From an uncultured virus (IMG/VR IMGVR_UViG_3300036766_001530) (Duplodnaviria; Heunggongvirae; Uroviricota; Caudoviricetes): 64,000 nt of DNA. The notes below the pieces were generated by a model, which was not told the DNA's origin, searched no databases, and saw only the letters and a list, made by a program, of their open reading frames with translations. The position numbers were made by a program, and so were the translations under genes. Shown here piece after piece: positions 17,356 to 42,086 of this stretch. How positions within the stretch are numbered: the first letter of the stretch is position 1; every line of letters starts with the position of its first letter. The stretch lies in the IMG/VR virus record IMGVR_UViG_3300036766_001530. One strand, written 5' to 3'.

Positions 17356-17395
17356 CGATGCAGAATACATCACTTCGCATCATCGTCAACCTTTC
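17356..17395 (-). promoter_or_regulatory. Class II promoter copy 2 (GAAAGG-TTGACG-16-TATTCT-GCATCG)
   Basis: Repeat of 8335-8374; upstream of the ORF starting at 17339. Confidence 0.65.
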
Positions 17396-18840: not shown

Positions 18841-19084
18841 CGCTCCGCCTCGGCGCCCCAGACGATGGCGCAGTAGGACAGGCTCTTCCGGCTCGCCCTC
18901 GCGATGTCCCGAAGCGACTGCCGCTCCGACTCGGCGAGCGCGTGCCACCACGCTTTCCACTCGTCCATCGAGAGTCCCCGGTATCGAGGATCTCGCGCCT
19001 CCTCACCAGGCCTCGGCGTCGGGTGATACCGCTTGCGCCCGGACGACGAATCGGAAGAGGGAGCGGAATTTGCTGCTTCGAGGC

Positions 19085-19783
19085 TCATATCTCGAAGCTC
19101 CAGCCCTTCTTCTTCAACGCCCCGTATCGAACAGCGTCGAACTCGTAGACGGTCGCCGGCCGCCCCTGGTCGCCCGGACCTCGCTCCGACTCGCCCACAC
19201 GCCGCAGGATGCCCATCGAGAGCATCCGCTTGGCGAAATTGCGATCGTCGAGCGACTTACCGAGGACTGCCTCGTAGAGGTTCCGGAGCTGCGGCATGGT
19301 GAACTGCTCGGGCAGCATCGAGAACCCGATGGGCTCGTAGCGGATCTTGGCTCGCAGCCGGAGAGCAGCCCGATCGAGCACGCTGGCGTCGCGAGCGCGC
19401 ATGCCTTCCGACCCGCGGTGCCACTCAGATCCCACGGCCGGATCTTTGTCGCCCCGGCTCGCCAGAGCGAGGTAGGCGACGCGAACGATCCCGTCCTTGT
19501 CTGGGTCGAACGTGTAGAGCTGCTCCAGGTGGAGATCGCGAAGCCCGGCCCGCTCCCGGAGAATCCGAGCCGCCACCTTCTCCAGCGACTCTCCGACTCC
19601 GACCGCGCCGCTCGGCAGAAACCACCTCGCCCTTTCGGATGTCTCGTCACGCAGGACCAGGACTTCGAGACCCGGCGGAGACTTCTCGAAGTCGATACTG
19701 AACACGACGCACTGAACGCGAATGGTGAGCCGCGAAGCGGCGAACTCTGCTCTGTTCCGGGGCTTGAACTGGGTCATGGTCAT
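19085..19783 (-). CDS. nrtR: NrtR-family Nudix-related transcriptional regulator
   Basis: WFLPSGAVGVGESLEKVAARILRERAGL (degenerate Nudix box), LEQLYTF, C-terminal wHTH LPEQFTMPQLRNLYEAVLGKSLDDRNFAKR...GRPATVY. Confidence 0.85.
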   Translation of the reverse strand: MTMTQFKPRNRAEFAASRLTIRVQCVVFSIDFEKSPPGLEVLVLRDETSERARWFLPSGAVGVGESLEKVAARILRERAGLRDLHLEQLYTFDPDKDGIVRVAYLALASRGDKDPAVGSEWHRGSEGMRARDASVLDRAALRLRAKIRYEPIGFSMLPEQFTMPQLRNLYEAVLGKSLDDRNFAKRMLSMGILRRVGESERGPGDQGRPATVYEFDAVRYGALKKKGWSFEI

Positions 19784-21326
19784 CGCTTCTCCAGCGTTTG
19801 GAATCTGCCGTAGACATCGAAAGTGAACCTGATGCGGTTCGATGGGATCGTGATCTGAGCACCAACGACCGTGCCCACCTCGGGCAGGGTCGTCAGAGTG
19901 GAAAGGTAGGAAACGCTCCGCCGGGCAAGCATCCTGGTGATGAACTCCATGTCCGAGCGCGAGGGATTGCGCTCGGCGAGGCCCCCCTTCGGCATGATGG
20001 TGAGCCGCGAAGCGGCGAACTCCGCTCCGGTCTGGGGCTGCTTCCGACCCATCTCAGGCCGCCTTCCTCTTCAGCTTCGACGCCGGAACGAAGTTCGACA
20101 TCTTCGGCCGCTTGCACGTGAGACACGGTCCCTGGTAGCCCTGTTCGCGACCGTCGATGGCGTGCTCGCAGTCGGCGCAGAGGCCGAGCGCAGCAATCTC
20201 ATCGGGCACGATTCCGGCAAGACGGAAAGCGGCCTCCGTCGCAGATGGATCGAGCTTGACCATGCTCGTGTGGCTCCACTTCCCTTTCCAGAGGCCGGGA
20301 TAACCTCCCTGGTCAGGCCAACGCAGAGCGCGCAACGCCTTCCCCAGGGCTTCGAGATCGGCCTTGCTGACGAGCGCGAAGTCCTCCGGAGGTTTCGTCG
20401 CGACCGCCGTCGTCTTCCGGCTACCGCCGAGGATCTTGTCACTGACGATCTCGGTGCGCACGCGGGCCAGGCTCTTCTTGCTCATGGTCGAACGACTCCT
20501 TCCGGAAGTGAATGGCAATGGCAGCAGGTCTCGATGCTCGTCGGAGCCTTACCGCAGCTCGGGCAGGAGCGACAGTCCATCTCGAACTCGGCGAGCTTGG
20601 TCAGATCCGTCGGCTCCACAACCCGGGCCGCGTAGAAGCGCCCAGTCGAGATCGGGGTACCGGCCGGCGTGAGGATGTGAAGAATGGGATGAACGCCTCC
20701 CTGAGGCGTGCCCGAGAAGCCGGCGACGCGGCCGTAGACGACGCCGGAGATCCGGGGCAAGAGGACCTTGACCGGATCGCCGATGGCGAGCGGTGCCATC
20801 ATCTCGCGCGTGACGTCGAGCGCGCTCATGAGGCCTCCACCCGCCGAGGACGAGCGCCAACGTCGTATTGCCCGTGCGACGATGGCTCCACCTTCTCGAT
20901 CTTGCTGAACGTGTCGACGAACTTGCCTTCGTCGTTGCACCTGAAGCTCCGTCCCTTCTGACGGATCTCGACCTGCGTCACAGCATCCGCAGCCGAGTAG
21001 GCCAGAACGTCGACCTCGAACGATTCCGTGACGCTCGCGACCTGGTTGGAGAACGTCACCCTGTAGGGACGCGCCTTGTCTTCGGTCATGGGTTTCCCCT
21101 CGATGCGCAGTCGTCGTCGTGCCAGCCATCGCGCCCACGGCACTCCGGACACCGCCGAGGCACGAATGCGACGGCGAGAGCGAAGATGCAGAGGGCTGCG
21201 ATGGCGAGGACTGTCATGACGGTTTGATCTGGTTTTTGGTTCCTTGAACGGAGGAAGGAAGCGGACCTCAGAATCGTCCGGACCGGACCGGGACCGGACC
21301 CGGACCGGAGTTCGTCGCTCCGCGAC

Positions 21327-21671
21327 TCACTTGGCGTACCCCACGGCGAGCTGCTCTCCTGGCTTGCCCGGGTACTTGGAACGCATCTCCTCCTCGGCCG
21401 CCTTGGGAGCCATCTTGTGCTTGGCGACCATGTGGCCGATGTAGAGGTCCTTCCACGGCGGCCGGCAGTCGCCGACGGTCGCCTCGATGCTGGCGACGAG
21501 CTTCCCCTTGCAGATGGCCCCCTCCTTGAGCTGGTTGTAGACGGCCGTCTCGCGTGCCTGGAGGTCAGCCTCGACCTTCTTGAGCGCGGCCTTCGCGTCG
21601 GCGAGCGCGGCTCGCTTCCGAAGGATGCCTTCGAGTTCGGACTGCTTGATGATGGTCTGCTTCTCGCTCAT
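21327..21671 (-). CDS. Hypothetical coiled-coil protein; stop codon supplied by a minus-strand repeat
   Basis: 114 aa ORF with strong GC3 bias; TGA at 21327-21329 is the GTGAG of the repeat. Confidence 0.65.
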   Translation of the reverse strand: MSEKQTIIKQSELEGILRKRAALADAKAALKKVEADLQARETAVYNQLKEGAICKGKLVASIEATVGDCRPPWKDLYIGHMVAKHKMAPKAAEEEMRSKYPGKPGEQLAVGYAK

Positions 21672-21723
21672 GGGTTCCTGCTTTCTCCCGGCCGGTTAGG
21701 GTGTGGCCGATGAGGTTCTTGTA

Positions 21724-22200
21724 TCAACCGCCTCTGACATCGTCTGGCATCCGCGCCTTCTTCATTCGTTCCCGGGCCTCGTGGAGCCACTTGTCGGCGG
21801 CCTCCGAGGCATGCACCTGCCAGTACGCGGAGTTGGGTTCCTTGACGAGGTGAGCTGTTCCGGCCCACCAGACCATGAGGCCATCGAGCACCAGGGCGTC
21901 GACGTCGATCGTGATCTTGGGAGGATTCCTGTACGGAGGATTGAACGGCAACGGAACGGAACGGGCCCCCGGCGATGGCGGCGGCATCGTCACCCTCGCC
22001 TTATCGCAAAGCCGCTTGGCGTCGATGAGACTGGTACCGGGCCTGCGCTCCCGGTAGGCCTTGATGGCATAGATGATGTTGCCGCCTCGCAGGAGCGCCA
22101 GCTCGGCTGCGTTCAGAGGTGAGTCGCGAAGCGACGAACTCCGCTCCGATCCGGACCCCCTTGGAGTCGATGAGGACTTCTTGCTGTCGCGCTTCGCCAT
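21724..22200 (-). CDS. Protein with ribosomal L7/L12 C-terminal-like motif
   Basis: IIYAIKAYRERRPGTSLIDAKRLCD matches the AIKxxR...LxxAKxxxD pattern. Confidence 0.5.
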   Translation of the reverse strand: MAKRDSKKSSSTPRGSGSERSSSLRDSPLNAAELALLRGGNIIYAIKAYRERRPGTSLIDAKRLCDKARVTMPPPSPGARSVPLPFNPPYRNPPKITIDVDALVLDGLMVWWAGTAHLVKEPNSAYWQVHASEAADKWLHEARERMKKARMPDDVRGG

Positions 22201-23653
22201 CAGGCCGCCCCCGCCTTCTTCAAGATCGCCGCCGACACGCGGCCCCGCTTGAACGGCTCGACGTCTTCGAGGACCAGGCAGAGGTCAACCGCGAACTCGC
22301 GAATCAGGAGCGGCTTGACGTAGTCGAGCGCGAGCGCCATCTCCTCCCGCTTCCGATCTTGGTGGCGCCAATCGCCCTCGAAGACACGGCCGGCCCGGCA
22401 CATGCCTTCGATGAGCTTCTGGCGCTCTTCGGCAGCCGTCAGTTCACGCGCCATGGCGAGCCTCCAGGTGTTCCTTCCTCATCTTGCGGCGACCGGCAGC
22501 CGTCCGGGCGTGATCGGAAACCCTCGACCCCTCCTCGACCCGCTCGAAGATTCCGAACTCCGCAGCCGTCTTGAGCCTTTGCTTTCCCAGCAGCCGTCAC
22601 GATCGCGTAGCCCCACCGGATGTGAGGGCCAAAGGCGCTGTAGGTCCGCTCGCGCGTGAGCCGGACGAGCTTCAGCTTCACCAGGCGAAGCAGATTGCGG
22701 TTCCACGAGCTGAGACCCCCACGGCAGTTGAGGCGTATGCCAGGAGGATAGAAGGCAAGTGCTCGCGCGAGGAGCGCGAGACGCCGGGCCTGCCCTCTGT
22801 GCTTGTCCTGGCTCATGACGTTCCGAGATTTCTCGCAGCCCGATCACCCACCGGATCTTCCTCGACGAGCTGTCGATTGTGGTTGTCGTCCGTCCACCAC
22901 GCGACGACTTCACGCACCGGATCGCCCTCGCTGCCCGAGCCCCGGACGAAGGTGATCTTGGTGACCGTCACCCGCTCGACTCGTCGAATCTCGTTCCGGA
23001 CGTTGCTGGCCATGGCTCAGTCCCTCCCCATCTTGACGTGGACCTTGACCGGGCTCGCCTCGGGCTCGCTGATGGTGAGTCGACTGAGCCGCGGGTGCGT
23101 CTTGTAGCCGTTCGCTTCCACGAACATCTCCAGCGCTTCGAGGCTTTGACCGCGGACCACGATCTCTTCCGAGCCGCCGTAGAGCATGACGAACGCGACC
23201 TGCATGAATTCGGGTGGTCGGAAGCTCGCGTCGAGTCGGAAGGGATGCTCCTTGACGAGGGCCTCGTCTTCGGGCACCCGGTCACGGTTCCCCGTGACGA
23301 AGATGAGCTTGAGCCCAGGGATGGGATCGGGAGCCGCCACTGCCGCCCCGGCGCTCATGGTGAGCCGCGGAGCGGCGAACTCCCCTCCCCTCCCCTCCGA
23401 ATCGTCAACCGCCTCCCTGGCGCTCATGCTGCGTGTCTCGCGAAGCGGATATTCTTGGTCTTGGAAGCCTCCCGAGCGCACGATGCCGGCGACTCGCAGC
23501 GCCCCTCGGCGATGGCTTCGAGCACCGAGAGGTGTAGATCGTCTTCGAGGCTGTGGGCCTTCTCGTCATCGCCGTCGTGCGCGGCCTTCGACACCTTCAG
23601 CACGTCGTGCTGGACGGTGACAACCGTGACCTTCTTCCCTGCGCCGACGCGGC

Positions 23654-24991
23654 TCATCGGCGCACCTTCGCCTTCTCTTTGCTCGGGATGTACGGGATGA
23701 CCTCGGCGTGGAATGAGCACCGACCGTCCACGACAGCGTCGAGCACCATCCCGGCCTGCATGACGTGGAGGTAGGCCGTCTCGGCCGGTCCCAGCTTCGA
23801 CAACACGACCAGGATGCCGTCGCCGAAGTTGATCCTCGCGTCCTTGGCGACGGTGCCGTCGATTGTCGTCGACTTTCCAGAGACGAGCTTCTTGAACCGG
23901 ATCGCCCCGACAGCACCCTGGGTGTCGGCCCGCATGTCGTGAACCGGGTTCCACCAGGCGGCCGGATCGTCGTTGCCCGGGTAGTGCTCGTCGAGCCAGG
24001 CGCAGCAGGCCATCCGCTGCTCCTTCTGGAGCCGCTCGCGCAGGTCCCAGGCCGCTCGGTGGTCTTCCGGCTTGGGCTTCTTGTACTCTCCGTGCTCGTC
24101 TTCGGTCGGATCGTCGACCGGCGTCGACCGGAACACGATCTCGGGCTTCCCCGAGATCATGTCGACGACGACGGGAGCGATCTTGCCGGGCAGGCAGCGC
24201 TTGTGCGTGGCCTGGTCGTACTCGTCCTCGACCATGAAGCGCCGGTCGGGGTACATGTTCGCCTTCCGGTCGTAGAAGGCGGCCTTGTAGAAGATCGTCC
24301 CGCGCTTCCGGTTCCCGGCATCGTAGATGCCCATGCCGCGGGGGTCGGAGCCGGCCGAGTCCTTCTTCCAGCCGGCCGGCAGCGTCGACTCGCGGAAGAG
24401 ATCGTCCGTCTTCCCCCCGAACGTGATCCCCATGCGGGCCCAGGCCGGATCTTCGCTGCCCTCGATCGGAAGCTGCGTGCTCGCGGCGACGGCCGTGGCC
24501 GCAGGACGATGGGCCAAGATCGCCGCCGCCTCCGCGCTCTTCTTCATGATGTCGGTCGAGCTGTCGCCGCTCTGTCCCACGGGCGGCGCCTCCAGCATGG
24601 TTCCGCCGAGCCCAAGATCCAGGGCCGCTTTCCGCCACCGCTCGCGCTCTTCGTAGCCGAGTAGATCCACGAGCGCCGACCGATACGACGTCCCGGTGCC
24701 GGCGCCGATGTTCACGCGGAGGCTTCGGCCGCCGCGGTGACCGGTCACCCAATGCTCACTGAAGGGCAGGTCGCGGTCCTTCGCGTACTCGATGATGCGG
24801 GCCTTCGTCCAACCCTTGACGTCATTGGGCGCGATCCGAACACCGGCGACAGCGTGCAGCTCTGCCCGCGGAGCCCAGGTCACCCCCGCATGACGGATGA
24901 GCTTGACGCCGCGGTAGGCGAGCACGCCGACGATGTTCACGTGCTCGGAACCACTGCCGTTGGGCACGCGAGCATAGCCGCGCTTTGCCAT
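23654..24991 (-). CDS. Large hypothetical phage protein
   Basis: Long ORF with strong GC3 bias; start uncertain (a repeat lies at 24990). Confidence 0.6.
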   Translation of the reverse strand: MAKRGYARVPNGSGSEHVNIVGVLAYRGVKLIRHAGVTWAPRAELHAVAGVRIAPNDVKGWTKARIIEYAKDRDLPFSEHWVTGHRGGRSLRVNIGAGTGTSYRSALVDLLGYEERERWRKAALDLGLGGTMLEAPPVGQSGDSSTDIMKKSAEAAAILAHRPAATAVAASTQLPIEGSEDPAWARMGITFGGKTDDLFRESTLPAGWKKDSAGSDPRGMGIYDAGNRKRGTIFYKAAFYDRKANMYPDRRFMVEDEYDQATHKRCLPGKIAPVVVDMISGKPEIVFRSTPVDDPTEDEHGEYKKPKPEDHRAAWDLRERLQKEQRMACCAWLDEHYPGNDDPAAWWNPVHDMRADTQGAVGAIRFKKLVSGKSTTIDGTVAKDARINFGDGILVVLSKLGPAETAYLHVMQAGMVLDAVVDGRCSFHAEVIPYIPSKEKAKVRR

Positions 24992-25047
24992 GAGCCGCGA
25001 AGCGGCGAATTCTGGGTCAGGTCTGCTCCGGACCTTTCGCTTGATCG

Positions 25048-25260
25048 TCATGGCAGGAACGCCTCGCCCATGCCCTCGCGCCCGCAGACGCGGCAACGGG
25101 TATCGACGCCCGGCCGCGCGACCTCGTCGCCCGGTTCGAGAGCGTGGTCAGCCAGGATCTCGACATTGTCCTCGGCGCCGCAGGAAGGACACCGGTACTG
25201 GGGGAGGGACTTCCTCGGCTTCGACTTCGGGGCTCCTACGGGGGTCGTCGTTGTCATCAT
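25048..25260 (-). CDS. Small Zn-ribbon protein (leaderless)
   Basis: CPSC...CRVC; ATG 6 nt after -10. Confidence 0.65.
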   Translation of the reverse strand: MMTTTTPVGAPKSKPRKSLPQYRCPSCGAEDNVEILADHALEPGDEVARPGVDTRCRVCGREGMGEAFLP

Positions 25261-25266
25261 GGGGTG

Positions 25267-25298
25267 AGCCTATCAGAGTGTTTTAGGTACGTCAAACA
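25267..25298 (-). promoter_or_regulatory. Class I promoter copy 2 (TTGACG-17-TAGGCT), leaderless
   Basis: TGTTTGACGTAC motif, extended -10 TG. Confidence 0.8.
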
Positions 25299-25336
25299 GA
25301 AAATGGTGAGCCGCGGAGCGGCGAACTCCGCTCCGG

Positions 25337-26086
25337 TCAGAGTCCCTTCCTGCGAGCGGCGCCGCTCTGCTTCTTCGTCATCGGAATCGGTCCCTGGTCC
25401 TTGATCCAGAGTTCGAGGTCTGCGACGGTAAACTCACCGTAGTTGTTGAGGTGCTGGCCTTCCGGATTGAGCCAGAACACCACCTCCTTCTTGGAGCTGT
25501 CCTTCCACCGCGGCGAAAGCGCGAACCAGCGCTTTCCAGCCGCCTTCAGCTTCTCCGCGATCTGAGTCTTCTCCGCCTCCTTGCGAAGAGCGGCCCCGTC
25601 GGTGTCGACTTCCATCATCCGCGTCGTCAGAGACCCCGGCATGCGCGAGACGATGGTGAGCATGAGTCCCGAATTCTTGAAGACGCCGCCGCCTCCGAGC
25701 CAGATGGCAACATCCTTCTTCACGAAGGCTTCCCAGAGAGCTTCGAGGTAGTCGAAGCCGATGCCAGGGACGGGATTTCCCTTCGGCACACGGACTCCAA
25801 AGCTGGCCTCGTCCCAGGCCGAGCCGAACTTTGCTCCGTGGCGAGGAGTCAACTCGCCGCGAACGTGAGGGCTCGCGCCCACTTCCTCGGAGGATTCCGG
25901 CCAGTGGGCGCATACGATCGCCGGATCGCCGTCCACCTTGAGCTGGTAGAGGTACTTCGGCAGCGTCGTGATCGTCCGCCGCTCGATACCGAAGACGTCG
26001 TCCCCCGGTAAACCGAACGCACTGCGCAGACCCTTGATGCCCCACTCGTGCTCGGCGCAGTGATCGGCTCCGAGGTTTACGCCCAT
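25337..26086 (-). CDS. Hypothetical protein
   Basis: 249 aa ORF with typical codon usage; the true start may be further upstream. Confidence 0.65.
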   Translation of the reverse strand: MGVNLGADHCAEHEWGIKGLRSAFGLPGDDVFGIERRTITTLPKYLYQLKVDGDPAIVCAHWPESSEEVGASPHVRGELTPRHGAKFGSAWDEASFGVRVPKGNPVPGIGFDYLEALWEAFVKKDVAIWLGGGGVFKNSGLMLTIVSRMPGSLTTRMMEVDTDGAALRKEAEKTQIAEKLKAAGKRWFALSPRWKDSSKKEVVFWLNPEGQHLNNYGEFTVADLELWIKDQGPIPMTKKQSGAARRKGL

Positions 26087-27054
26087 GAACGGGGTCGTCC
26101 TGGAACTGTGGGCCTCCCTCGTCCGTCATGAGCCAGGCGTTGTCGTATCCGCTACGCATGTGTTCCCCCCGTTCCGGATCTCTTGGGAGCCTCGTCACCC
26201 AAATCGAAGACGTGGAGCACGATCCCGCGGTCGGCCACGATAATCGTGCCCACGAAAGTGGCGAAGCCCGGGACGCTGGACTCGGCGCCCGTTGCGACCA
26301 CGGCGAACCAGTGCTTCGTCACCGGAGCCTTCGGATCGGCAATCACCCAGACGGACATCGAGTCGCCGATGACTCCGACGGAGATCGGCTTCGACTTCCA
26401 GGGCATCTCGATGGCGAACTTCGGCTCCCAGCCGACGCCAGATCGGGTCCGTCCGATCTCCAGTGGGAACTTCCAGACCACGTTGGCCATCAGATGAGTT
26501 GCTCCGTCGTCATCGCGCAGGACCATGCTGGCAGTCATTCGCTCCACCGACGCTCAAGGAAAGCGTCCCGAGATCCTTCGACTCCCAGTAGAAATCGACG
26601 TCCCAGCACGTCCAGGACTCGTGCAGGGACCGATCGCCAAATGCCTCCATGAACTTCTTGGCCGCGTCACGAGCAACGGCCTCGGTAGACGCATCCCCCT
26701 TCTCGAACGGAAAGATCGCGATGGGCCGACCCTTGAAAGGGCCACCACTGATCGGCAGGAACCGGACCGCCACGCCGTGCAGCGTCCGCCGATGCCGGCA
26801 TTCGTCCCGGTGGACCGCCGGCCCCGCCTTCTGACGGCACCCATCCGAGCAGGTGAAGCACCCGCAGTCGGCGCACACCTTGACGTCGGCCACGAGCCGG
26901 AAGACATCCTTGCCCACCACCTCCCGACCTGGCTCGATATAGAAGGACCCAGTCCCGGCATGCCCGAGAATCTTCCCCATGGTCTTGCCGCAGACTCGGC
27001 AGGAGTCGTCGTCGCGGACGACGTCCCAGCCCGGTGAAACCCAGTTGACCTGTC

Positions 27055-27342
27055 TCATGAGTCGCTCTCCTTTTGCCCCGGAACCGACTTCAGCCTCGGC
27101 ACGCACACGTGCGAGTCATTGCAGAACTGGCACACCGTGATCTTCTCGGTGTGCATCCCGCAGAGCCTTCTCGCTTCGATCTCGGTCTTCCGGCCGAGGT
27201 TCTTCACGTATCGCATCTTGCCGGTCCGGATGAACGCAGCCAGCTCGGCGAGGCTCTTCACCTTCTCGTAATCGAGGATGTTCGCGAGCCGCGTCGTCAC
27301 CAGGACATCCTGGTCACCAAGGGTGATCCGAATCAGCTTCAC
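27055..27342 (-). CDS. RNA polymerase alpha-CTD-like small protein
   Basis: VTTRLANILDYEKVKSLAELAAFIRTGKMRYVKNLGRKTEIE resembles the alpha-CTD HhH pattern (R..N.L...I....L......L....NLG.KS..E). Confidence 0.6.
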   Translation of the reverse strand: MKLIRITLGDQDVLVTTRLANILDYEKVKSLAELAAFIRTGKMRYVKNLGRKTEIEARRLCGMHTEKITVCQFCNDSHVCVPRLKSVPGQKESDS

Positions 27343-27884
27343 GCTCCGACTCCTCCCCGCTCGAAATACCGAGCTTCGAGCTTGCTGCCCATGGCTGTGA
27401 GCGAGGCGATCCCTGCGCGAAGCTGCGTCACCAGATCCTTCTCGCCGCAGGCTTCCAGGATCTCGGTGAGCATGTCCATGCTCTCGACCGTCGAAGCGAT
27501 GGTCCGCGAGACCAACCGGAAGGACTCGGGAGCGCACTCGTTGTCGGAAAGACCGACGGTGGTGCTGGCGAGGATCTTGGGCACGCTGTCGAGGACCCTC
27601 CGGGCCGTCGCCTTCAGGATCTCCAGGCGCCGCTGGCGAGCTTCGAGGTCGTCGTTCAACTGGCCGCTCGTGAGTTGCTTCTCACCCACCGGTGACCTCC
27701 CTGTTCTTGCGACCGCTGCCATGGCACGTTCGGCACATGACGCCGGTCTCGGAAACGAAACCGGTGCCCGAGCACCAGATGCAGCGATCTTCGAGGGCGA
27801 TCTCAGCCAGACGACTCTCGGCGGTGAGCCGCGAAGCGGCGAACTCCGCTCCGCTCCTGGCCTTCTCCAACTTGGTGAGGCCCA

Positions 27885-28757
27885 TCACTTCGCCTTGCTC
27901 GTCCGCTGCGGGTAGACGGCGTCGCCGGTGACCTCACAGGAGAAGAGCTTGCGGGCGCAGTCGCGACCGACCCAGAGCGAGACCGGCTTGCCGCTCGTGG
28001 TCGCCACGATGGGCACCCAGTTGAACCCGTCCTTGATCGCGTGACCGCAGGCGTGGCACTGCGAGTTGTGATCGGTGCCGGCGGCGAAGCGGGACTGGCC
28101 GTGCCTCGTACCCTCGGGCCAGACGATGTGACCGACCGCGACGCGCTGGCCGTTGATGATCTGCCACGTCCACTTGATGGGAGGTGACGAGATCGTCCGC
28201 ATGTCGATGCCCATCGCCTGGTTGAGGTTGGCGACCACGGTCGGCGAGAGCGTCCCCATCACCACCACCGGTTTCGGGCGCGTCGAGTCGAGCAGCTCGA
28301 CGAGCCGAGCAATCTCGGAGAACCCAGACGCCCATTCGAGAGCCGTGCCGAGCGCGGCCTTTTCTTCGTTGCTCTGGGTGTACGGCACGAGCCGGTTGAT
28401 GAGATCGAAGACGGCGTCGGCCTTCGCGAACTGGCCGAACTCCATCGCGTGGACGATTCCCCAACCCGAGACTTCGGGGTGCGACCGCGTCCGATCTTCG
28501 CTGATCCCCACGATGAGAGCGCGGTTCTCTCGGACGTACTTGATGGCGACCGTCTGCTTGTTGAGCGCGGCCTTGACCTTGCGTGACGCCCCCTTCGGCC
28601 AGTAGCCGTCGCTCTCGGCCTGGGCGAGCGTGGGCAGGACGTACGAGCGGAGGATGGCGAGGGCCTTGCCCGAAAACCACTTCTCGATGGGTGAGCCGCG
28701 AAGCGGCGAACTCCGCTCCGGCTCCGGGCTCCGGTTCTTCCGAAGGGTCAAAAACAT
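27885..28757 (-). CDS. Hypothetical protein with C-terminal Cys motifs
   Basis: CHACGHAIK...VGRDCA; in-frame repeat near the N-terminus; start approximate. Confidence 0.6.
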   Translation of the reverse strand: MFLTLRKNRSPEPERSSPLRGSPIEKWFSGKALAILRSYVLPTLAQAESDGYWPKGASRKVKAALNKQTVAIKYVRENRALIVGISEDRTRSHPEVSGWGIVHAMEFGQFAKADAVFDLINRLVPYTQSNEEKAALGTALEWASGFSEIARLVELLDSTRPKPVVVMGTLSPTVVANLNQAMGIDMRTISSPPIKWTWQIINGQRVAVGHIVWPEGTRHGQSRFAAGTDHNSQCHACGHAIKDGFNWVPIVATTSGKPVSLWVGRDCARKLFSCEVTGDAVYPQRTSKAK

Positions 28758-29411
28758 CACTCCACCCCCAGGCGCGCTCGCATGGACTTCGCCTCGAACC
28801 GAGCCCGCATCGCCGGGCTGCACGTGTCGCACGGATGGGGCTCGTTGTGGCTGAAGTGCCAGAAAGCGTGCCCGTGGTCATCCTCGGGAAGGCCTGCGAA
28901 GACCTCCCCGAGCTTGACGAGATCCACGGGCTTGATGGTGAGCACGACCTTGTGCTGGCCCTTGCCGTGCGGCACGAAGAACTCGAACGCCAGCGTGCTG
29001 TCGCCGAGGTGGAAGTGGGGCTCGACATCCGTCTTCCACGCACGGTCGGATCTCTCCAAGCTGAAGCGGCGGCTGGTGCTCGCGCTCATGACTTCCTCAG
29101 ATCGTCCGGGGAGAGGAGCCTGGTCATGATCCGGAAGATGCGCCGGCAGGCCGTCTTGATCGGAGCGTAGATGGCGCGGTCGGCCTCCGCCCGCTCCATC
29201 CGGATGACGGTCTTGCAGGCGGACGCCACCGCCGCGATCGCTGCCGGATCGCTGCTCGAAAAGACCATGGCTCGGTGGTCGGCCGGGTTGGTGGAGCGCA
29301 GAGCCAGATCCGGGCCGTTGTACGAGCCCTCGGCCACCGGAGCCGCGGCACGCTCCAGGGACACCAGCTCCCGGTGTAGTTCGGACCACACCGGGCCGCT
29401 GATTCGGATCT

Positions 29412-30236
29412 TCACCGGCTGACCCTCGCCAGCTCCGGGAACTTCTCCGCCACCTCGCCGTTCGAGGCGGCGCCGATGATCCAGCGGAGCAGAAGCTTCT
29501 CGCGGGCGTTGAAGGCGTCTTCCTTCTCGACCAGGAGCCGCTTCAGCACCGCCCGGCCGACGCCCTTCTTCTTGCCTCCGACCTTACCGCCGCGCCGCTC
29601 GACCGCCTCGTCGACGTGGGTGCCGTTCGAGGTCATCTCGGCCAGAGCCTCGACCTGCTTGTCGCGCGGCAGCTCGACCAGCTTCATGATCGCGTCGGTC
29701 ATCGTGACACGGCCCGACTCGACGGCGTCCTGCACCTCGCGGGCGCAGTCGAGGAGCGCGAGGTGGTTGTCGACCGTCTTGGTGGTCTTCCACCCGAAGA
29801 GGACCGCGACCTGCTTCTTGTCGTGGCCCAGGCCCTCCATGAGGGCGTGGACCTTCTTGGCGCGCTCGACCGGACCGTCCTTGAGGTCCATCTCGTTCGA
29901 GATCGCGAGGACCGAGAGCGCGTGAACATCGTCGCCCTTGACGATGACGACCGGTGCCATGATCGCGACCAAGCCCTCGGCCCGGCGCCGCTTGTTCGCC
30001 TCGACGGCGGCCTTCGTGCGCTGGCAGCCGTCGATCAGCTCGAAGCTAGGGCCGTTCTTGCGTACGGCCGCCGGCTTGTTCGGCAGCCAGCCCTTGGCGA
30101 GCATGCTCTGCACGATCTCCTCCGAGACGGGAGCAGCAGCCCGCTTGCCGTGGAGCTTCTCCTCGATGACGAGGATCTCGGGAGCGACGAGGAACGACGT
30201 GCCGCGCTTGGCGCCTTCGATTGCGATCTTGGCCAT
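29412..30236 (-). CDS. ParB/RepB/Spo0J-family protein
   Basis: SMLAKGWL..PAAVRK...FELIDGCQRTKAA, ISNE, HTH KKQVAVLFG...VDNHLALL; RBS AAAGGA. Confidence 0.8.
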   Translation of the reverse strand: MAKIAIEGAKRGTSFLVAPEILVIEEKLHGKRAAAPVSEEIVQSMLAKGWLPNKPAAVRKNGPSFELIDGCQRTKAAVEANKRRRAEGLVAIMAPVVIVKGDDVHALSVLAISNEMDLKDGPVERAKKVHALMEGLGHDKKQVAVLFGWKTTKTVDNHLALLDCAREVQDAVESGRVTMTDAIMKLVELPRDKQVEALAEMTSNGTHVDEAVERRGGKVGGKKKGVGRAVLKRLLVEKEDAFNAREKLLLRWIIGAASNGEVAEKFPELARVSR

Positions 30237-30305
30237 GGTAGAGGTCCTTTGCTGTGAGGTGAGCCGCGAAGCGGCGAACTCTCGTTCCGCTCCGTTCTGT
30301 CCCTC

Positions 30306-30337
30306 ACCCTACCAAGCTGTATCCTGTACGTCAAACA
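30306..30337 (-). promoter_or_regulatory. Class I promoter copy 3 (TTGACG-17-TAGGGT)
   Basis: TGTTTGACGTAC motif upstream of the ParB-like gene. Confidence 0.75.
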
Positions 30338-32875
30338 TTATTTATCGTCCTTCTTCTGGCTGCCGTAGCTGGCGCCGTACCGCAGGCTCCAGGAATCGGA
30401 AGCTGCTTCCTCGGGCATGTCGATCGCCGGCCTCTCCCAGTCGGGGCTGTCCGCGTCGAACCGGTTTCGGCTGACGGTCGCCGAGCTGGTAGCTCCCGGT
30501 ACGATCTCGGGCACGTGGAGGCCAGGCACGGCTGCGCGCACAGCCTCCTTGTGCTCGCGGTGCCACCGCTTGCGAGCGGCTCGATTCTGGAGCACTGGCG
30601 ATTTTTCTCCACATGAACAAGTCGTGAAGCCCTCGCCGTTCGCCACTCCTGGATACTGAGCCGCTCCCTCGAAGGGCAGCTCATGGCCGGGTAGTCGATT
30701 CGTCTTCTTGGCTGACTTCATGAGAGATCGCCTCCCGTCTTCCGCTCGTACTCATCGAAGCGAGCGATCGCCTCCGCCACCGTCAGCGGATCGCCATCCT
30801 CGGTGCAGCAAGCCGCCAGCTCGGCAAAGGCTCTCGGATCGTCGACGCGCAGGAGCTTGCCGAGCGCGAGATCCTGCTTCCACCGCTCGCGGCGTCGCTC
30901 TCGGGCAATCGCCTCCAGGTCGGAGGACTCTGGGAGTTTCTGCTCCATCTTCACTCGCCCATCGCTTTCTGACAACGCTTCGAGCAGTAGCCCGAGACGG
31001 TCGCCGTTGTCTCGCGATCGTCATAGATTCCATCGCATTGCAGGCACGCCCACTTCCCTGCGATGCGCTTCTCGCGGCGCTTGGGGGCCGTGAGTCGCGA
31101 AGCGACGAACTCCGCTCCGGTTCGGGTCGACTTCGTCATCGGCCGTGTCTCGCGGACAGGTGAACGCAGAGAACCAGGCAGCCGAAGCCGAACGCCAACC
31201 AGCCAATGATCTTCGGCCACCGGTGGCTCCGCCAGCCGCGCCTGGGCGAGAGATCCACCCCAACCATGCAGGAGCCGAAGGCCACCACTCCCAAGATCGC
31301 CGTGACGATGGTCAGCATTGTGCTCACTTCTCCAGCCTCCGACTCCCAGCCTTCTTGGGCGATCTGCGCTTCACCGGCTTGCACGAGGTGCAAGTCCGAT
31401 GACCACACTTCGAGCACTCGAACTGCCGTGTGTTACGGAAGCACTTGCAGCACTTGACGGTCAGGAAATCACTGAAGGACATGGGAGGTCTCTTTTTCGG
31501 CTCACCGGCAGTCGGTATCGCCACGTTCGCCTTGCAGTCGTGAACGATGAGGACCACGCCCGGATCGCTGGTGAAATAGAACTTGAGATACTTGAGACCT
31601 GGGTTCCGGATCTCAGCCCTGCCGCCTTGCCATTGCGAAGGCACGGAAAGAGCCACGACATCCTTCGGACCAAGACCGATCGCTCCGTGCTCCGTGGGCT
31701 CGTCCCCGAGCACCAGCTTCATCTTGCCAGAGCCTTCGATGACTTTGAACGTCGCTTCGAGAATGAGGCGCTCCTCTTTGAAGATCGTGAGGTCCGCGAG
31801 TATCTCGACCGCGAACATGTCTTCGCCTTCGATCTCGATAGGCATCAGTCGCCGTACCCCGAGACGCCCGTGAGGTTCCCGGCGTCATCGAACGTGAACA
31901 CGCCACCCTTCCAGTCGGTCGGGGCCACCACGATCTCGTTCGGGGAGATTGTGAATGGCGCCACGGCGAATTCCGAGTGAGCCATTTCCAGATCGCGCTG
32001 ACCGGCAGCACCATCGGCGAACTTGAGCTTCGCCCGCGCCAGCATCGCGACGATGGTCTCGCGATCGGTCACTCGACGCCCCGAATCGCGATGGAGAGGC
32101 ACGAGATCATAACGACCGGCATCCCCGTCAGGAAGACCTTGAAGATCCGGATCACCTCGCCCTTGGCTCCCTTCCCTCTGGCCGGGTTCGGGAACGGGGC
32201 CGAGAGCACGTCGACGATCCGGGTACGGGGCTTCTTTGCCACGCTGCGCCGCCGCTTTTCGACGGACTCGCCGAGGATCGTCCTGTCACCGACCACCGAG
32301 GTTCCCGTCTCCGACATCTTCTCGCCCATGACAAGGGCGATCTCGCCACTGCCCTCCACGACGATGAAGCTGAGGCGGGCCTGGAGCCTCGGGGCTCCCT
32401 TCGGCCAGACCTTCCCATCCCGACCATGCCGGAAGATCCCGACGTCGGCGCTCTGCTGGCTGATGAGGTGGTTGAACCCGGTCACCGAAGCAGCCCGCTC
32501 GTCGTCAAAGCTGATCGCCTCGCCCTGGAACCCTGACGCCGGCTTCTTCACAGGCTGAGTTCCCTTTCGCAGGTCGGGCAAGCGATGTCCTTCTTCGCTG
32601 GTGGATGGGTGTGAATCCACATCGGGAGCACGTCAGATCCGGCGGAGCTGATCTGCCAGTCGTCGCCCTTCTCATCGTTGCCTCTGTAGACCCTCATTCC
32701 GCTCGGTAGCTCTTCGAGCGAAACGAGATGAACGACAGCCACTTCGCCGTCCGGCTTCTCCGACCACGAGTAGACCGTGCAAGGCAGCGGCAAGATCGGC
32801 GACCGCGGTGAAGGCTGCCGGCGCTGAAAGAGACGCTTGGCTGTCGACAAGGGGTTCATCTGAGATGGTTACGCC

Positions 32876-32907
32876 ACAGTATGCCGTTGTTTCCTGTACG
32901 TCAAACA
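32876..32907 (-). promoter_or_regulatory. Class I promoter copy 4 (TTGACG-17-TACTGT)
   Basis: TGTTTGACGTAC motif. Confidence 0.75.
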
Positions 32908-33239
32908 AAAAGAGTGAGCCGCGAAGCGGCGAACTCCGCTCCGTTCCGATCCGAGACAAAAACCCCATCGTCTCCGAGACAAAAACCCCATCGTCCAAAC
33001 CCACTTACGCTTTCATCGCCAGGACCCGTTCCTTGATGAGCCCCAGCCGATGAAGGCGCGCCTTCTCCGGGTCTTTCGGAGGCCTGCCGCCCTTCTTGCG
33101 CGAGAGGCCGATGCAGACGTGATCTGTCATGCAGTCGAGGCAGCGCCCCTCGGCCTCGCACCGTTCGCAGGGCGGCTCGACTTCATCGGGGTCGAGTTCC
33201 CGCGAACATCTCGTACAGACAGGCATCGGGTCTCCTCCT

Positions 33240-33923
33240 TCAGCTCTCCAGAATCTTCTCTGCCAGCTCGGGCGCGCAGGCGTCACGCACCGCCTGACGC
33301 CACACGGCCGTCTTCGCCTTCGACATGATCCGGTCGCGGCCGTGAGCCGCGAAGCGGCGAACTCCGCTCCGGTCCGCTCTGGTCTGCTCTGGTCTCTTTC
33401 CCATCGTGGTCAGCTCGCCAGAATCTTCTCGGCCAGCTCGGGCGCGCAGGCGTCGCGCACGGCCTGACGCCACACAGCCGTCTTCGCCTTCGACATGATT
33501 CGATCGCGGCCGGCGCCGGCCTTGCCGACGACGCCCTCGAAAGTGGGTCCCTCGAACTCGCCAGCGAGGACCCGCAGCATCCGCATCGAGCAAGTCCACG
33601 CGCATGCCAGGGCCCTTCACGTCCAGCCCCGCGAGACTTCCGGGGCCCCAGTATTCGACGAAGACCACCAGCTCGCGCCAGCGGTGGTCGGTCGCGATCT
33701 TGGCGAGCGGCTCGGCGAGCGTCGAGTGGAAGAGGGCGATCGCCGGTCCGTACTCGGGCTCGCTCGCATCGAACATCAGCTCGCGCGTGCCAAAGCGCTC
33801 CCATCCGCGCTTCTTCGACCAGAAGGCCCTCACGTGCCGGCCGTCGAGCTTGTCGAAGAGGTATGCCGTGAACGCCCGGAAGGACTGGCCGGCGGCGAGC
33901 GGGATCTGAGGGTAGCCGATCAT
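33240..33923 (-). pseudogene. Ligase-like nucleotidyltransferase (RNA ligase-like), frameshifted, with duplicated 3' end
   Basis: Motif I DKLDG in the main frame; FEGVVGK and MSKAKT (motif IV/V-like) lie in a different frame after ~33580; the last 101 bp are present twice. Confidence 0.6.
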
Positions 33924-34468
33924 CGCTCAAACCGAACGCGATCGAGCATCCGCTGATCGCGCTTCCACTGTCTCCGGTTCAACCTGATCTCGTAGCTGAG
34001 CAGTTGTGCCGCCCTGTCATCCTTCGCTTCTCGCAGGGCGTCGCGCCACTCCTCCTGATCGCCACCGATGGCGCAGAGATACGTCTCCGATCTGACGGGT
34101 CGAGCACCAGGCAAGGGTCCCATCAGAGCCTCGACCCTGGAACCAGCCGCGGGTGGCTTGCCCATCTCGATCGTCCCGCCGCAGAAGACGGCCTCGGGCC
34201 TCGGCTTCATGCCGATGAACTTGAGCGCTGAGGTATCGACCAGGACGATCGGAATGCTGGCAATCTCGGCCAGCACGGCGGCTGCCACCCGGTGGGACCC
34301 TGTCCAGGCCTTGTAGCGTGTCCGGCTGAGCTGCTCGGCAAGCAGGGGCCTGCCTCGCCAGCCCCGACGTCTCATATCGACGGCCAGCTCGGCCACGTAA
34401 TGGGGAAAGGTGATCTCGTGTGGAGGAACGACGTTCCCGGGCGCGGCGTCTGTGTCGGGATAGATCAT
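33920..34468 (-). CDS. ParB/Srx-like N-terminal domain protein
   Basis: GWRGRPLL...YKAWTGSHRVAAA...IPIVLV. Confidence 0.6.
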   Translation of the reverse strand: MIYPDTDAAPGNVVPPHEITFPHYVAELAVDMRRRGWRGRPLLAEQLSRTRYKAWTGSHRVAAAVLAEIASIPIVLVDTSALKFIGMKPRPEAVFCGGTIEMGKPPAAGSRVEALMGPLPGARPVRSETYLCAIGGDQEEWRDALREAKDDRAAQLLSYEIRLNRRQWKRDQRMLDRVRFER

Positions 34469-37400
34469 CGACGAGTTCAGTGGGGTCAGTTGATCTGCGT
34501 GTGCTCGCGGATGGGCCAGCTACAGTGGATGCAGTCGTCGAGGCAGAGCGAGATCGCCGGAAGCCCGGTCGGGAATGCGACGTCGAGCTGGGCCGCAACC
34601 TTCGTGAGCATCTTCCGTCGCGCTGGCGCGAGGCTGCCGAGCGACATCGCCGAGTCGCACGGCGGCAGGCCATGGTCGCGCTCCTTGTCGTCCGTGTAGA
34701 TGACGAGCCCACCGAGCGTGCGCGTTTTCATGGCTTCTCCGGCAACAGCCGCTCGGGAGGCAATGAACCGAGGCAAGCTCCCTTCCCTCCACAGCACACG
34801 CAGCCGCCATCCCCGCAGTGGCACCAGCGACTCGCCCGCACCTGCCTCCGGAACGGGAAGACGGCCGGATCGCCGGGACCGTCCGAATCGGCCCAGGTCA
34901 GCCCGTCGAACGACACCCGCCACTTGTGATCGGGCTTGAGTGGCCGACCCGAGGCCCGAGCCTTCGGCAGCTTCGGGGCCCAGGGCCGCCGGCCGGCGTT
35001 CTGGCGGAGCTGGTTCACCTCGCGCTTGAGATGCTCGAAGGGTGAGTCGCGGAGCGACGAACTCCGCTCCGGGCTCCGGGCTCCGGACTCCGGCTTCATC
35101 TCCGGCTTGCGCTTGAACCCATCGAGGTGTCGCCGAAGGATTCCGAGCACGTCGTTCAGCGACAAGTTGATGGTTCGTTCGATAGCCCGGAGCATTTCCT
35201 CATGCTCGGGAGTTTCACTCCCTGTTCGAGGGACACTTTTTCGTCGTCGCTTCGAGACCATGGTCATTCACCCTTCGGATCGGAGCGGAGTTCGCCGCTT
35301 CGCGGCTCACTATGACCGAACGCTCTGACACAGCCGACCGCGCCGCAGTGCCCGGCGCAACAGTTCTTGTCGGCCTCCTCGACGCGATCTGCCGGCACCT
35401 CTTCGAGCGTCATCGGACCGTTCGCCTTACCAATGCCGTACCACCAACCGAGAATCCGGTACTCGCCGCCCCACATCTCGGGGTATCGAAGCGACTCCAG
35501 CTTTCCGATCGCATCAGTGTCCCGACGCCGGAGCGGCTGCCCAGGCTTCCAGGTGGGCCTAGAATGCACCGGAAGTCTCCGTCTGACAGCTCGAACAGGG
35601 TGAGCCGCGAAGCGGCGAGTGAGCCGCGAAGCGGCGAACTCTGACTCCGCTCTTTTCCGGTCCGGAATTCATGACTTCATCCCCTTGAGAATGGCTTGCG
35701 CAGCGGAAGCAACGTAGACGATCAACTCCCTCTTCGCTTCTTCGAGTTCCTTGCTCGACGCTGGCCGGCGTGAGACGAATGGCAGCGACTCGATGAGCCA
35801 GACGTCAGGTTCGTAGTCCCGGTGCCGAGTGACAGTGAGATCGACGGAACCGACCGTCGCCTGCCACGTGCGAGGTTTGCAGCCGGCGGCCCACTCGCCA
35901 CGCGAATACGAGGTGACGTCTTCCCAGATTACGGCCACGACTCAGGCTCCTTTCGTCATGATGGTCAAGATCGCCCGGGCCTGCTCTTCGGTGACCGCGA
36001 GGCCCTCGAAGCAGAGGCCACCGTGGTCGGTACCACAGACGGCAAGAGTCGAGAACTCTCCGAGCGCGAAGTCTCCGAGCGCGAACTCCTGGTTGAGCGA
36101 TCGTGCGAGCGACTCCGAAGCGGTCCGCCGGCTCTGCTTGGCGTCCCGCTCGTCCTGGCGTGCCTTCTCGTGGCCGAACCGCTCCAGGATGAAGCCAACC
36201 AGCCGCTCGACGTCGTGACCTTCCTTCCTCTCGGGGAACTGCTTGGTGTCGCCCACGTTGCCGACGATCTTGACCCGCACCTTACCGCTCGCGTGAGAGT
36301 GCCAGGTGCCTCCGGTGCGCTCGATGGTGGTCCCGACGTGCAGGAAGACGCCGTCGATCTCGCTGATCTCCAGGGCGTCTCTGAACGAGCTGACCTTGCC
36401 CACCTCGACCTTGTGTCCCTTGTCGCGAAGCGACTTCGCGATGTCGGTGATAAGAACCCTCGCCTTCTTCTCGGCCGACTCCCGAGCCTGCCGGCGGCGA
36501 TCTTCACCGAGGAGGGTCATCGCTTGAGACCGTCGACGCGCTTGCGATTCGACTCTTCGTGGAGCCGCTCCACGACGCGCTTGGCGAGCACATCGACGAG
36601 AGAAGGGGTGTTCTCGGGGGCGAAGAAGTCCGAGTCGACCGGCACGAGGGTGAGTTCGCCGCGCCGACCGTACTCGTAGATCGGAGCCTTCTCGTGTTCG
36701 CCGAGTCGGTAGATCCCCTTGCTGGCCCCGCTGTGCGAGAGATAGTCGGCGAGAGCCATGCCGACGTCCGCCCCGAGGCACGTCATGCAGTCGGAGTTGC
36801 TCGGATCGAAAACCAGATCCAGCGTGAGCTGACCGTCGTCCCGCCACTCGTCGGGCAAGGCCAGTTCGATGTGAATGAGTCGCTGGACCGTGAAGCTGAC
36901 TGTGATCATCTTCGCGTTCGGGATCATGGTGTCACTCCATTCTTGGCGAGCCGCTCGGCCACCGTTTCGATTGGCATGTTCTTCACACACGTCCAGCCCT
37001 TGCGGCAGCTCCGGCAGATTCCGGTCCGCCACCCCTCCTCGTCGAAGATCGGCACGTCGCACGCCCGCTCGACCGTCTCCTCGCGATCTACCGTGGTCTC
37101 ACCGGTGCCGAACTTCAGCGTGCCGTGGGTGATGACCATCTTCCGCATGAGCGTGCAGGAGCCGAAGTGCTTGGGTTTCGCAGCCATCGCCATGGTCAGG
37201 CCCCGACCGAAGCGCGAGAGATCAGCTTTCCCTCGACCAGCCCATGCTCCGACTTGACGATGTTATAGCCGTGGCGCGTGAGGCTGACGCTCTTCGTCCA
37301 CCGGTTCACCTCGGCGAGCTTGAGGGAGGCCAGCTCCTCGAAGCCCACGAGGCCGTCAGGTGAGATCGATCCGTGCGGCGCCGCCAGCCGATCGAAGAGC

Positions 37401-38553: not shown

Positions 38554-38560
38554 GGAGAAC

Positions 38561-38592
38561 AGACTACTCCGATGGTTTATGTACGTCAAACA
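38561..38592 (-). promoter_or_regulatory. Class I promoter copy 5 (TTGACG-17-TAGTCT), leaderless
   Basis: TGTTTGACGTAC motif; spacer nearly identical to copy 6. Confidence 0.8.
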
Positions 38593-40092
38593 TAAAATAA
38601 AGAATCTGGAGCGTAGCCCTCCTTACACTTTCTCGAAGATGCGCCGCTTGAAGAACCTGAAGCCTGGCCCGGCCGCTCGGTGGGGCCCCGAGGCGACGAC
38701 GGAGGTCACTCGGCCGTTGCACCGGGTGGTCGCAGCGTGGTCAGCCTCGACAATCGCGAGACGCGAGCTTCTCTCGTCGGAAGTCAGACTATCCCAGTCC
38801 GGCTCCTGCACGAGACCGGACATCCGGCAGGAAAGGCACTCCCAGTCGACGCTCCACAGTGAGCCGCGAAGCGACATCGTCAGGCCGCTCGCCGAACCGT
38901 CCGACCGCGACGCGGCACCATCGCTATCTTCCGACCGCTCCACCACCATGACCAGAGGCCAGCCTTCTTCATCGCGATCTGAGCGGCCTGCTTGTTGACC
39001 GCCTCGACGCTGAAGATCGGATCGGGACCGTCCGCGCCCGTCCTGGCGAACTCGTGGAGCGGACGCCACTTCTTGTGATGCTTCCTTCGGTACGCCATCA
39101 GACTCCTCCTTTGGGTTGCGGGGATGGAACTACCGGATTGCGCTTCCTGTGCTTCGGGCAGCGGACGAGATCCGTCTTGCTGTCGATCGTCCAGCCTCGC
39201 TTCTTCGCCTGCCGGATGCAGTCGGACTTCGAGCGGCCGGCCAGTTCCAGCATCGGGCACTCCGAGCCAATCTCCGACACCGTCGTTTTGCCGTCGCAGT
39301 AGAAGTGCATCGAGTAGGCGCCGACGGTTCCCATCTACGACTTTCTCGCCTTCCCGTACTCGTTCGGATCGAGTACGAGACCGTACTCCTTCGCCTTCAC
39401 CTGAAGGGGAAATCGAAGGTGGTAGTTGTCGCACTCAGCCCAGAGCTTGCGCAGGCGCTCGTGAATGGCCTCGACCGGCTCCTCGACCGGCTCGACGCTG
39501 TAGCGGTACTTCCGCACCCGGACGACACCGTTGAACGTGGATGGCTTGTTGTGCGGGTGGTGCAACAATCGGAACGACCAGCCCGGCTCCATGAAGGACT
39601 CGAACGACTGACTCTCGGCCGGACCGGGCGGCTTCCTCGTGTTGATGCGCTTCTTACCCACGGGTCTCCCCGTCCAGCTCGCGCTCGCGCCGACGCGCTT
39701 CCAGGCTCGCTCCGAGGGCCTTCTGGTACTCGGCAGCGCTCGTCGCCTTCACCAGCATCGAAATCGCCGGCACGCCGAGCTGCTTCTCCCAGCGGATGGC
39801 CTCGTTCGCGAGCAAGTGCCTATCGGTGAACCAGGTAGCATTGTGAGCCACCTCGATCTCCTTCGACCAGGGCACGTAGCCAAGCGACTCGGCGATCTTG
39901 GCCCCCTTTTCGTCGAGCGGCTCGGTCTGCACCGAGCACCCCCTCGCACCGCGAGCGTATTCGACCTTGCCGGCGCGCAGCGCGCCCTCGATGCCCCCGC
40001 GAGCGAGCACGTTCCGACCGGCCCAGGGATACTCGGCGGTGAGCCGCGAAGCGGCGAACTCCGAGTCCGTTCCGGCCGGATCTGGTTTGAAT

Positions 40093-41955: not shown

Positions 41956-41962
41956 GCCGATC

Positions 41963-41994
41963 AGACTACTCCGATGTTTCCTGTACGTCAAACA
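41963..41994 (-). promoter_or_regulatory. Class I promoter copy 6 (TTGACG-17-TAGTCT), leaderless
   Basis: TGTTTGACGTAC motif; ATG 7 nt after -10. Confidence 0.8.
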
Positions 41995-42086
41995 TAAAAG
42001 AGCACCACACGAAGCGTAAGGAACCTTACATTTTCACGACAGTCCGCCAAAGTCTCAAAGCCCCAAAGTCATGGTAGCCTTGTCCT

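Follow-up and report, generated by a model that had tools for sequence, protein, structure and literature searches.

A hairpin element between two diverged copies of a gene end in an uncultured phage, and its recurrence at the edge of other duplications

Described systems and the repeated gene end

Several described systems share features with the locus considered here. Displaced effector remnants in Vibrio are said to offer a parallel for displaced remnants of resident genes; insertion with long target duplication was reportedly described by Nobusato and colleagues in 2000, and the PeSL of T4-type phages have reportedly been treated by Comeau and colleagues, in 2014, as mobile regulatory cassettes. 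REP elements with RAYT transposases are short GT-led palindromic multicopy repeats, commonly found in inverted pairs, and Rickettsia palindromic elements are translated in frame within genes; we know of no allele remnants anchored at an element's edge for either of them. The account of PeSL cited here describes units of about 100 bp that contain a sigma-70 promoter and a terminator, recombine cassette with cassette, are tied to indels between close relatives and are proposed to be preferred recombination sites that shuffle genes (PMC2839356, Arbiol et al. 2010). Long-target-duplication inserts are presented, in the material cited, as kilobase-sized restriction-modification units of bacteria with nearly identical repeats, which are variable and often overlap the 3' end of a gene (PMC2853133, Furuta et al. 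2010). Homology-facilitated illegitimate recombination, as outlined for bacterial transformation and conjugation, is anchored by homology on one side and illegitimate on the other, with arbitrary ends and microhomology, and may leave displaced resident remnants behind (PMC3240628).

Of particular interest for the element itself is the promoter of the phage N4 virion RNA polymerase (vRNAP). According to the source cited, what this polymerase recognises is a hairpin of the template strand, with three nucleotides in the loop and -11 at the loop's centre; the enzyme needs A or G at -11, G at -10, G at -8 and C at +1, and contacts the C at -9. A sheared pair joins -10G to -12A, a 3'G:C5' pair closes the loop, and double strand gives way to single strand between -5 and -4 (PMC4496689). 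The heptamer GCGAAGC is described elsewhere as a very stable 'mini-hairpin DNA' present at some phage priming or start sites (PMC13037366).

The window, by which we mean the whole 64,000-nt stretch of DNA analysed, comes from an uncultured virus of the Caudoviricetes (IMG/VR record IMGVR_UViG_3300036766_001530), has a GC content of 63.6% and carries its genes mostly on the minus strand. Within it, 33240-33342 and 33410-33512 form a direct repeat (93% identity, 170-nt spacing, blastn E 5e-36), each copy of which reads, on the minus strand, as the last 33 codons and TGA stop (33240-33242 and 33410-33412) of a ligase-like gene. An element with a hairpin lies between the two (Table 1), and its GTGAG begins at 33342, immediately past the last repeated base, 33341. 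Over the 102 nt compared (33240-33341 and 33410-33511) the copies differ at seven nucleotides, six of them silent and at third codon positions and one at a second position, the sole replacement, which gives GAG (Glu) in the distal copy versus GCG (Ala) in the gene copy. A sequence-only reading of this DNA had already reported the two copies around the element, the exact position of GTGAG and a tally of six synonymous differences and one Glu/Ala; alignment and a codon-level count bore out all three. Because a random substitution in this stretch would be silent with a probability of only 0.25-0.29, at least six silent differences in seven have P = 0.001-0.004. The differences extend to 8 nt from the element's edge at one border and to 5 nt from the stop codon at the other, and therefore whole blocks differ in ancestry. 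Downstream of the distal copy, which we also call the stranded copy, the next gene begins, with a ribosome site ahead of its ATG.

Table 1. Coordinates, in the window, of the repeated gene end, its neighbours and the other duplications that adjoin copies of the element
Feature	Position	Strand	Details
Distal (stranded) copy, last 33 codons and stop	33240-33341	-	translates to GRDRIMSKAKTAVWRQAVRDACAPELAEKILES and stop
Element between the copies, 68 nt	33342-33409	+	core and tail
Conserved core of this element	33342-33371	+	GTGAG-led; hairpin 33346-33358
Variable tail of this element, CTCCG/GTCCG-rich	33372-33409		minus-strand ATG at 33402-33404
Proximal copy, 3' end contiguous with ligase-like gene	33410-33511	-	stop 33410-33412
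Ligase-like gene (tentative label)	33410-33923	-	start 33923; family about 205 aa
54-codon ORF	33240-33404	-	begins at the tail's ATG; element and distal copy read in one frame
Small Cys-rich gene, 73 aa, downstream of distal copy	33005-33226	-
Next element copy, past the small Cys-rich gene	32914-32995	+	tail with exact 23-nt tandem repeat (32950-32995)
Second coding case	63712-63868	-	gene-end copy 63812-63868, element 63770-63811, stranded copy 63712-63768
21-nt duplicate with start codon around element 23360	23339-23428	-	copies 23408-23428 and 23339-23359
Duplicated 5' 16 nt of tRNA-Pro(ggg), either side of element 61011	60995-61075	+	fragment 60995-61010, intact gene from 61061
GTGAG-led tandem units	60326-60489	+	13-nt x3 (60326-60364), 68-nt x2 (60352-60489)

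Some familiar sources of such a duplicate were rejected. A chance repeat is one; another is the short target-site duplication of a transposon, since the duplicates around the elements are 16-102 nt long and 77-100% identical, and thus neither fixed nor identical. A third is a diversity-generating retroelement: the seven differences (C/T, G/A, C/T, G/C, T/C, A/C and A/C) are not confined to adenine, and a Pfam scan of 72 window ORFs found no reverse transcriptase.

The name 'ligase-like', taken over from the sequence-only reading, is kept here as a tentative label, because a sub-threshold RNA_ligase match (E 0.0013) came from one of the four family members scanned (P0007). Pfam and PHROGs gave no match for the window ORF, and a PDB sequence search gave no firm name; what we take to be KxDG, EGVVGK and KxK motifs can be picked out by eye. 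An exhaustive profile search found 397 relatives at E <= 0.001, mostly of about 205 aa, the top one (P0001) being 75% identical over the first 110 residues, and a word-index protein search with those N-terminal 110 residues returned no relatives. The window gene is without some 35-40 internal residues that are present in all aligned relatives, and its reading frame shifts near 33575-33600; for these reasons the main strain probably carries a pseudogene here. Across the family the 33 C-terminal residues that are duplicated are conserved, apart from variation at the Glu/Ala site. Members of the family are found in uncultured phages of 485-642 kb, in Xanthomonas phage XacN1 and in the Lak phages. 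The very large size of these carriers, together with the tRNA array of the window and its RtcB, Nudix and deoxyribosyltransferase genes (Pfam), suggests that the source is a large phage.

The hairpin element family

Read on the gene strand, the element consists of a variable GGA-rich tail, GGAGTTC, a 5-bp stem with a 3-nt loop, and TCAC. Its sharp conserved edge is CTCAC on that strand and GTGAG on the plus strand; conservation covers about 40 nt, fading gradually toward the tail and ending abruptly past CTCAC. The 30-nt core has 35 copies at up to three mismatches in the 64-kb window, where none is expected, and a looser pattern (hairpin+TCAY) has 49 sites, 47 of them in one orientation. This shared orientation, together with the lack of a Y1 (HUH) transposase in the 72 window ORFs scanned with Pfam, sets the element apart from REP/RAYT systems. 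The stem covaries, with two compensatory pairs (C-G to T-A) and 96.9% of cells paired, and the covariation score was reached by none of 500 shuffles; the folding energy is ordinary when compared with shuffles (z = -0.9 and -0.65), so that the case for the hairpin rests on the covariation. Rfam at gathering thresholds returned tRNAs only and no match for the element, no -35/-10 boxes are present within its conserved 40 nt or so, and Pfam identified no nickase, primase, RNA polymerase, transposase or integrase among the 72 ORFs.

Between 54971 and 63708 lie 30 tRNA genes, all on the plus strand, with about 11 element copies among them; these copies are oriented as elsewhere in the genome, which sets them against the tRNA genes. 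Only two copies are reversed, one of which (35281-35310) has the ATG of a plus-strand ORF of 110 codons one base beyond it, while the other (21301-21330) faces the 3' end of a minus-strand gene. The motif ACGATGGG opens three tails (33342, 32914 and 60568). A second repeated motif, TGTTTGACGTACAGGAAACA with a -10-like box after it, has the appearance of a sigma-70-type promoter, is found at 32870-32910, 25265-25300, 30318-30337, 38560-38596, 41962-41998 and 6296-6329, and comes directly after three element copies. Only a few copies (32914, 25306 and 6329) have a separate TTGACG-type motif behind them, and beyond the element at 32914 the gene strand has a T-run and a sigma-70-like promoter motif.

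In at least 18 genes the element is also predicted to form part of the reading frame. Under the criteria of >=40 codons and GC3 >=0.75 for the downstream ORF, 18 of 48 copies have an ATG 17-71 nt upstream that is in frame through the element into the downstream ORF, 13 of them encoding EFAASRLT and five SSPLRGSP; they are spread over 6329-45826 (examples being 19725, 14112, 41903 and 41742). In the case of the Nudix/NrtR-like protein (19088-19783), a 78%-identical relative shares the MTMT start and the residues past the element, with a different, shorter stretch where the element peptide stands, and more distant relatives have short N-termini. In four copies (8671, 23360, 45261 and the reversed 35281) an ATG lies one base past the edge.

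The element was sought beyond the window as well. Viral contigs gave no match to the ligase-like ORF or to the element pattern. A degenerate pattern run on metagenome and genome contigs gave five single hits (L001-L005) whose contigs do not otherwise resemble the window; by a rough estimate, chance alone would give about as many. Neither the 46%-identical relative (L006) nor a huge-phage locus (L007) has such an element. At 464-590 of L004, an unrelated metagenome contig of 1365 nt, an exact element-like core precedes a tandem run of three to four 24-nt units, each with a GCGC-TTC-GCGC hairpin and ending in CTCAC, reminiscent of the GTGAG-led units of the window.

Alleles, restarts and a proposed joining of genomes

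Population data were taken from the contigs of one public run, probably the source sample, and compared over 17001-37000; 99% of the sampled window words occur in this run. Contigs at the main depth (about 11) match the window without differences on both flanks of the site. A minor-strain contig (depth 3.9) joins 33226 to 33410 through 11 other letters, which on the gene strand give a stop codon, a ribosome site and a start codon with neither element nor duplicate, the small Cys-rich gene following the ligase-like stop directly. This contig has 10 SNPs on the side of the ligase-like gene and another 12 in the gene that follows. The site is thus represented by three alleles: that of the minor strain has eight differences from each copy, the copies differ from each other by seven, and nearly all of the changes are silent, making the alleles roughly equidistant. 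With the minor strain as outgroup, the changes assigned to the stranded copy are two silent, one replacement and one ambiguous silent, and because these are so few the outgroup result, taken alone, is compatible with neutral decay. The one comparison made between main and minor strain revealed no obvious switch of ancestry at the element. Contig joints between element copies in the run are repeat mis-placements and were excluded. Over the 58 positions of 23116-23173 the one contig available disagrees with the window 10 times, which suggests strain-level mosaicism in the assembly or in the population.

The layout seen at 33342 recurs at other copies. The 12 nt past the edge are found again within 250 nt upstream, with up to two mismatches allowed, in 14 of the 49 copies, 13 of which were judged real, as against 1-5 of 49 (mean 2.75) at eight control offsets; offset 0 and offset 1 both give 14, each set including one different doubtful match (18799 and 18098). 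Restart distances are 13-170 nt. The earlier suggestion that the element marks a junction is upheld to the extent that these 13 copies show a restart at base 0 or 1 past the edge; the other 36 have no flanking duplicate, the element usually sitting cleanly. In the second coding case, the copies (57 nt, 77% identical) have 13 differences, 10 at third positions, and three amino-acid changes. The duplicate with a start codon at 23360 has three differences and, as read by eye, two amino-acid changes, the duplicate at 61011 is identical at 16 of 16 positions (100%), and upstream flank duplicates of 20-26 nt occur at 58448 and 53677. Short restarts land within the element and give tandem units, and longer ones duplicate the upstream flank. 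In the 68-nt unit, present twice, the element is repeated together with its flank, and further GTGAG-led units are a 13-nt and a 19-nt unit at 51524-51574 and a 19-nt unit present twice at 35600-35637 (all from TRF). No microhomology is seen at the junctions, and post-element fragments, when compared with remote stretches of the window, matched nothing but promoter motifs and other elements. The recurrence of the same layout suggests that recombination between related phages favours the element's edge as a place of joining.

Only two cases, those at 33342 and 63770, are both coding and long enough for a test of silent bias. In a simulation of a duplication identical at birth, with the gene copy selected (omega 0.1) and the stranded copy neutral, amino-acid changes as few as those observed had P = 0.013 in the ligase case and P = 0.0027 in the second; a model in which selection acted on both copies fitted well (P 0.49 and 0.45). 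That the two copies are two working alleles, and not a fresh or decaying target duplication, is well supported. The sequence-only reading went further in saying that they had evolved as working genes in different genomes. This is partly supported, by the simulation, the empty site and the third allele, with neutral decay or a translated remnant still to be set against it. An in-frame ATG precedes both stranded copies (33240-33341 and 63712-63768), and for that reason the latter may be translated remnants under selection.

We put at about even the chance that the locus arose through an out-of-register join of two diverged, co-occurring homologous phage genomes, anchored at the edge of the hairpin element. 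One parent would have given the ligase-like gene through to its stop codon, plus the 68-nt element behind it; the other, with the 'empty' site in which the stop stands directly before the next gene, would have given everything from 101 nt ahead of its own stop. Because the second parent's part would start there, the resident allele's last 33 codons would be left stranded behind the element. We infer that the edge (5' of GTGAG on the plus strand) acts as a fixed strand end, 5' at GTGAG if placed on the plus strand or, what amounts to the same, 3' at CTCAC on its complement. Such an end might come from nicking, from a site of priming or initiation, or from a hairpin flap resistant to trimming. 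During replication-coupled recombination it would be joined by ligation to a co-infecting template, or be extended along it, from a point some variable distance back. Within one genome such a process would yield the 13-, 19- and 68-nt units led by GTGAG, and between filled and empty co-infecting genomes it would yield gene end, element and stranded resident end, in that order. The junctions have this form: one side is constantly a single base of the element and the other is arbitrary, a short way back, falling in the coding cases on the diverged homologue. In form this would be homology-facilitated illegitimate recombination, from whose described cases it differs in that one end here is a fixed base of the element and no microhomology is seen. 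Points against the join are the 36 copies without a flanking duplicate, the two replacements in three differences at 23360, the failure to see microhomology or, among the 72 ORFs scanned, any nickase, primase, RNA polymerase, transposase or integrase, and the fact that the gene copy belongs to a gene that is internally deleted in the main strain.

The layout may also be read as an insertion whose target duplication, long and of variable extent, began as two identical copies that diverged afterwards through strain exchange or shared selection, and the order target-insert-target in one genome against a single target in the empty one is that described for long-target-duplication inserts (PMC2853133). 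Here a 68-nt insert without transposase or integrase is flanked by 102-nt repeats (over 30 bp) that correspond to a single target in the minor strain, identities ranging from 100% at 61011 to 77% at 63770 are what differing ages would yield, and so few changes belong to the stranded copy alone that decay would still fit them. We nevertheless regard this account as unlikely, since the simulated pairing of a selected with a neutral copy gave the low probabilities quoted above, and the two copies are about as distant from each other (seven differences) as from another strain's allele (eight). Exchange with an empty-site donor would, by our reasoning, have to stop within 5-8 nt of the borders or else delete the element. 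The element is also unlike the described inserts in being a 68-nt phage hairpin with allele-like repeats (93% and 77%) and one border that is always the same base.

Homologous recombination by itself would suffice if the gene end and the element formed a cassette that spreads by a single homologous crossover, as a popped-out circle integrating in the Campbell manner or by copy-choice; each new genome would thereby regain the order target-element-target, with both copies hybrids of donor and recipient alleles. Two-allele repeats and the filled/empty polymorphism would both be accounted for, the 68-nt unit present twice at 60352-60489 is the tandem form that such a process would amplify, and cassette mini-circles are documented for the PeSL of T4-type phages (PMC2839356). 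Like PeSL as described there, the present element is a short conserved stem-loop scattered among small genes of unknown function in what would be a large phage; it differs in its length of 40-70 nt, in having no -35/-10 boxes, in its junctions of edge to mid-gene, in the stranded allele and in being read in frame. The one filled/empty polymorphism seen has such an edge-to-mid-gene junction, not the cassette-to-cassette junction of PeSL indels. The circle would be a mere 170 bp, and neither the origin of the first edge-to-gene junction nor the 13- and 19-nt GTGAG-led partial units would be explained, all of which makes a spreading cassette quite improbable.

That the assembler collapsed two strains and mis-joined them at the repeated element is very improbable: the sample does hold at least two strains with 7-10% silent divergence at the site, a 30-nt repeat core breaks k=31 contigs and the window disagrees with its single contig at the 10 positions in 23116-23173, but a mis-join requires a shared word of k-1 between edge and mid-gene and none exists, contigs at a depth of about 11 cover both flanks without differences, and the edge-anchored layout is found at 12 further copies.

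To return to the out-of-register join, the sequence-only reading had added that the element may drive mosaicism, which is plausible, and is put no higher because no relatives carrying the element were found. In its strongest form, the proposal would make the element an active generator of a fixed strand end (a start or nick site, or a hairpin flap proof against nucleases) that repeatedly seeds out-of-register joins between co-infecting genomes, displaces resident gene ends, spreads together with the replacement end and lodges in frame; this we offer as a tentative and somewhat doubtful extension.

Likeness to N4 hairpins and what the junctions may mean

The element has the plus-strand sequence N GTGA GCCGC G(A/G)A GCGGC, and its closest resemblance, a strong lead by analogy, is to the hairpin start signal of the N4 vRNAP, with agreement at every tested position but +1. 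As in N4, there are a 5-bp stem, a 3-nt G-R-A loop, C:G closure and 4 nt from stem to edge; among the 48 copies, -8G, -9C and -12A are invariant, -10G is present in 47, and -11 is A in 34 and G in 14. In N4 numbering the sharp edge falls between -1 and +1, and the element, whose core includes GCGAAGC, would direct synthesis along the direction of the protein genes. A search of the literature found nothing relevant on GCGAAGC repeats in phages.

There are differences from N4 as well. The template base at +1 is G in 25 copies, C in 13, A in eight and T in two. N4 has three early promoters, whereas the element has about 49 copies in the window, eleven of which, in the tRNA array, oppose the tRNA genes. 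No gene for a cognate polymerase is seen in the 64-kb window, which covers part of a contig listed at 118,938 nt, and the phage is not N4-like in size or content.

Mosaic joints of phages are rarely caught with the sequence of both parents still in place. The site described here retains both alleles, the intervening element and, within the same sample, a strain with the empty site. A joint that falls on one exact base of a hairpin, in 13 of 49 copies, makes for a testable proposal, namely that a fixed strand end seeds recombination between phages. The family also presents a regulatory-looking DNA element that would be tolerated in frame across many proteins, and its likeness to the N4 signal suggests that DNA-hairpin signals of the N4 type may serve on a large scale beyond the N4-like phages.
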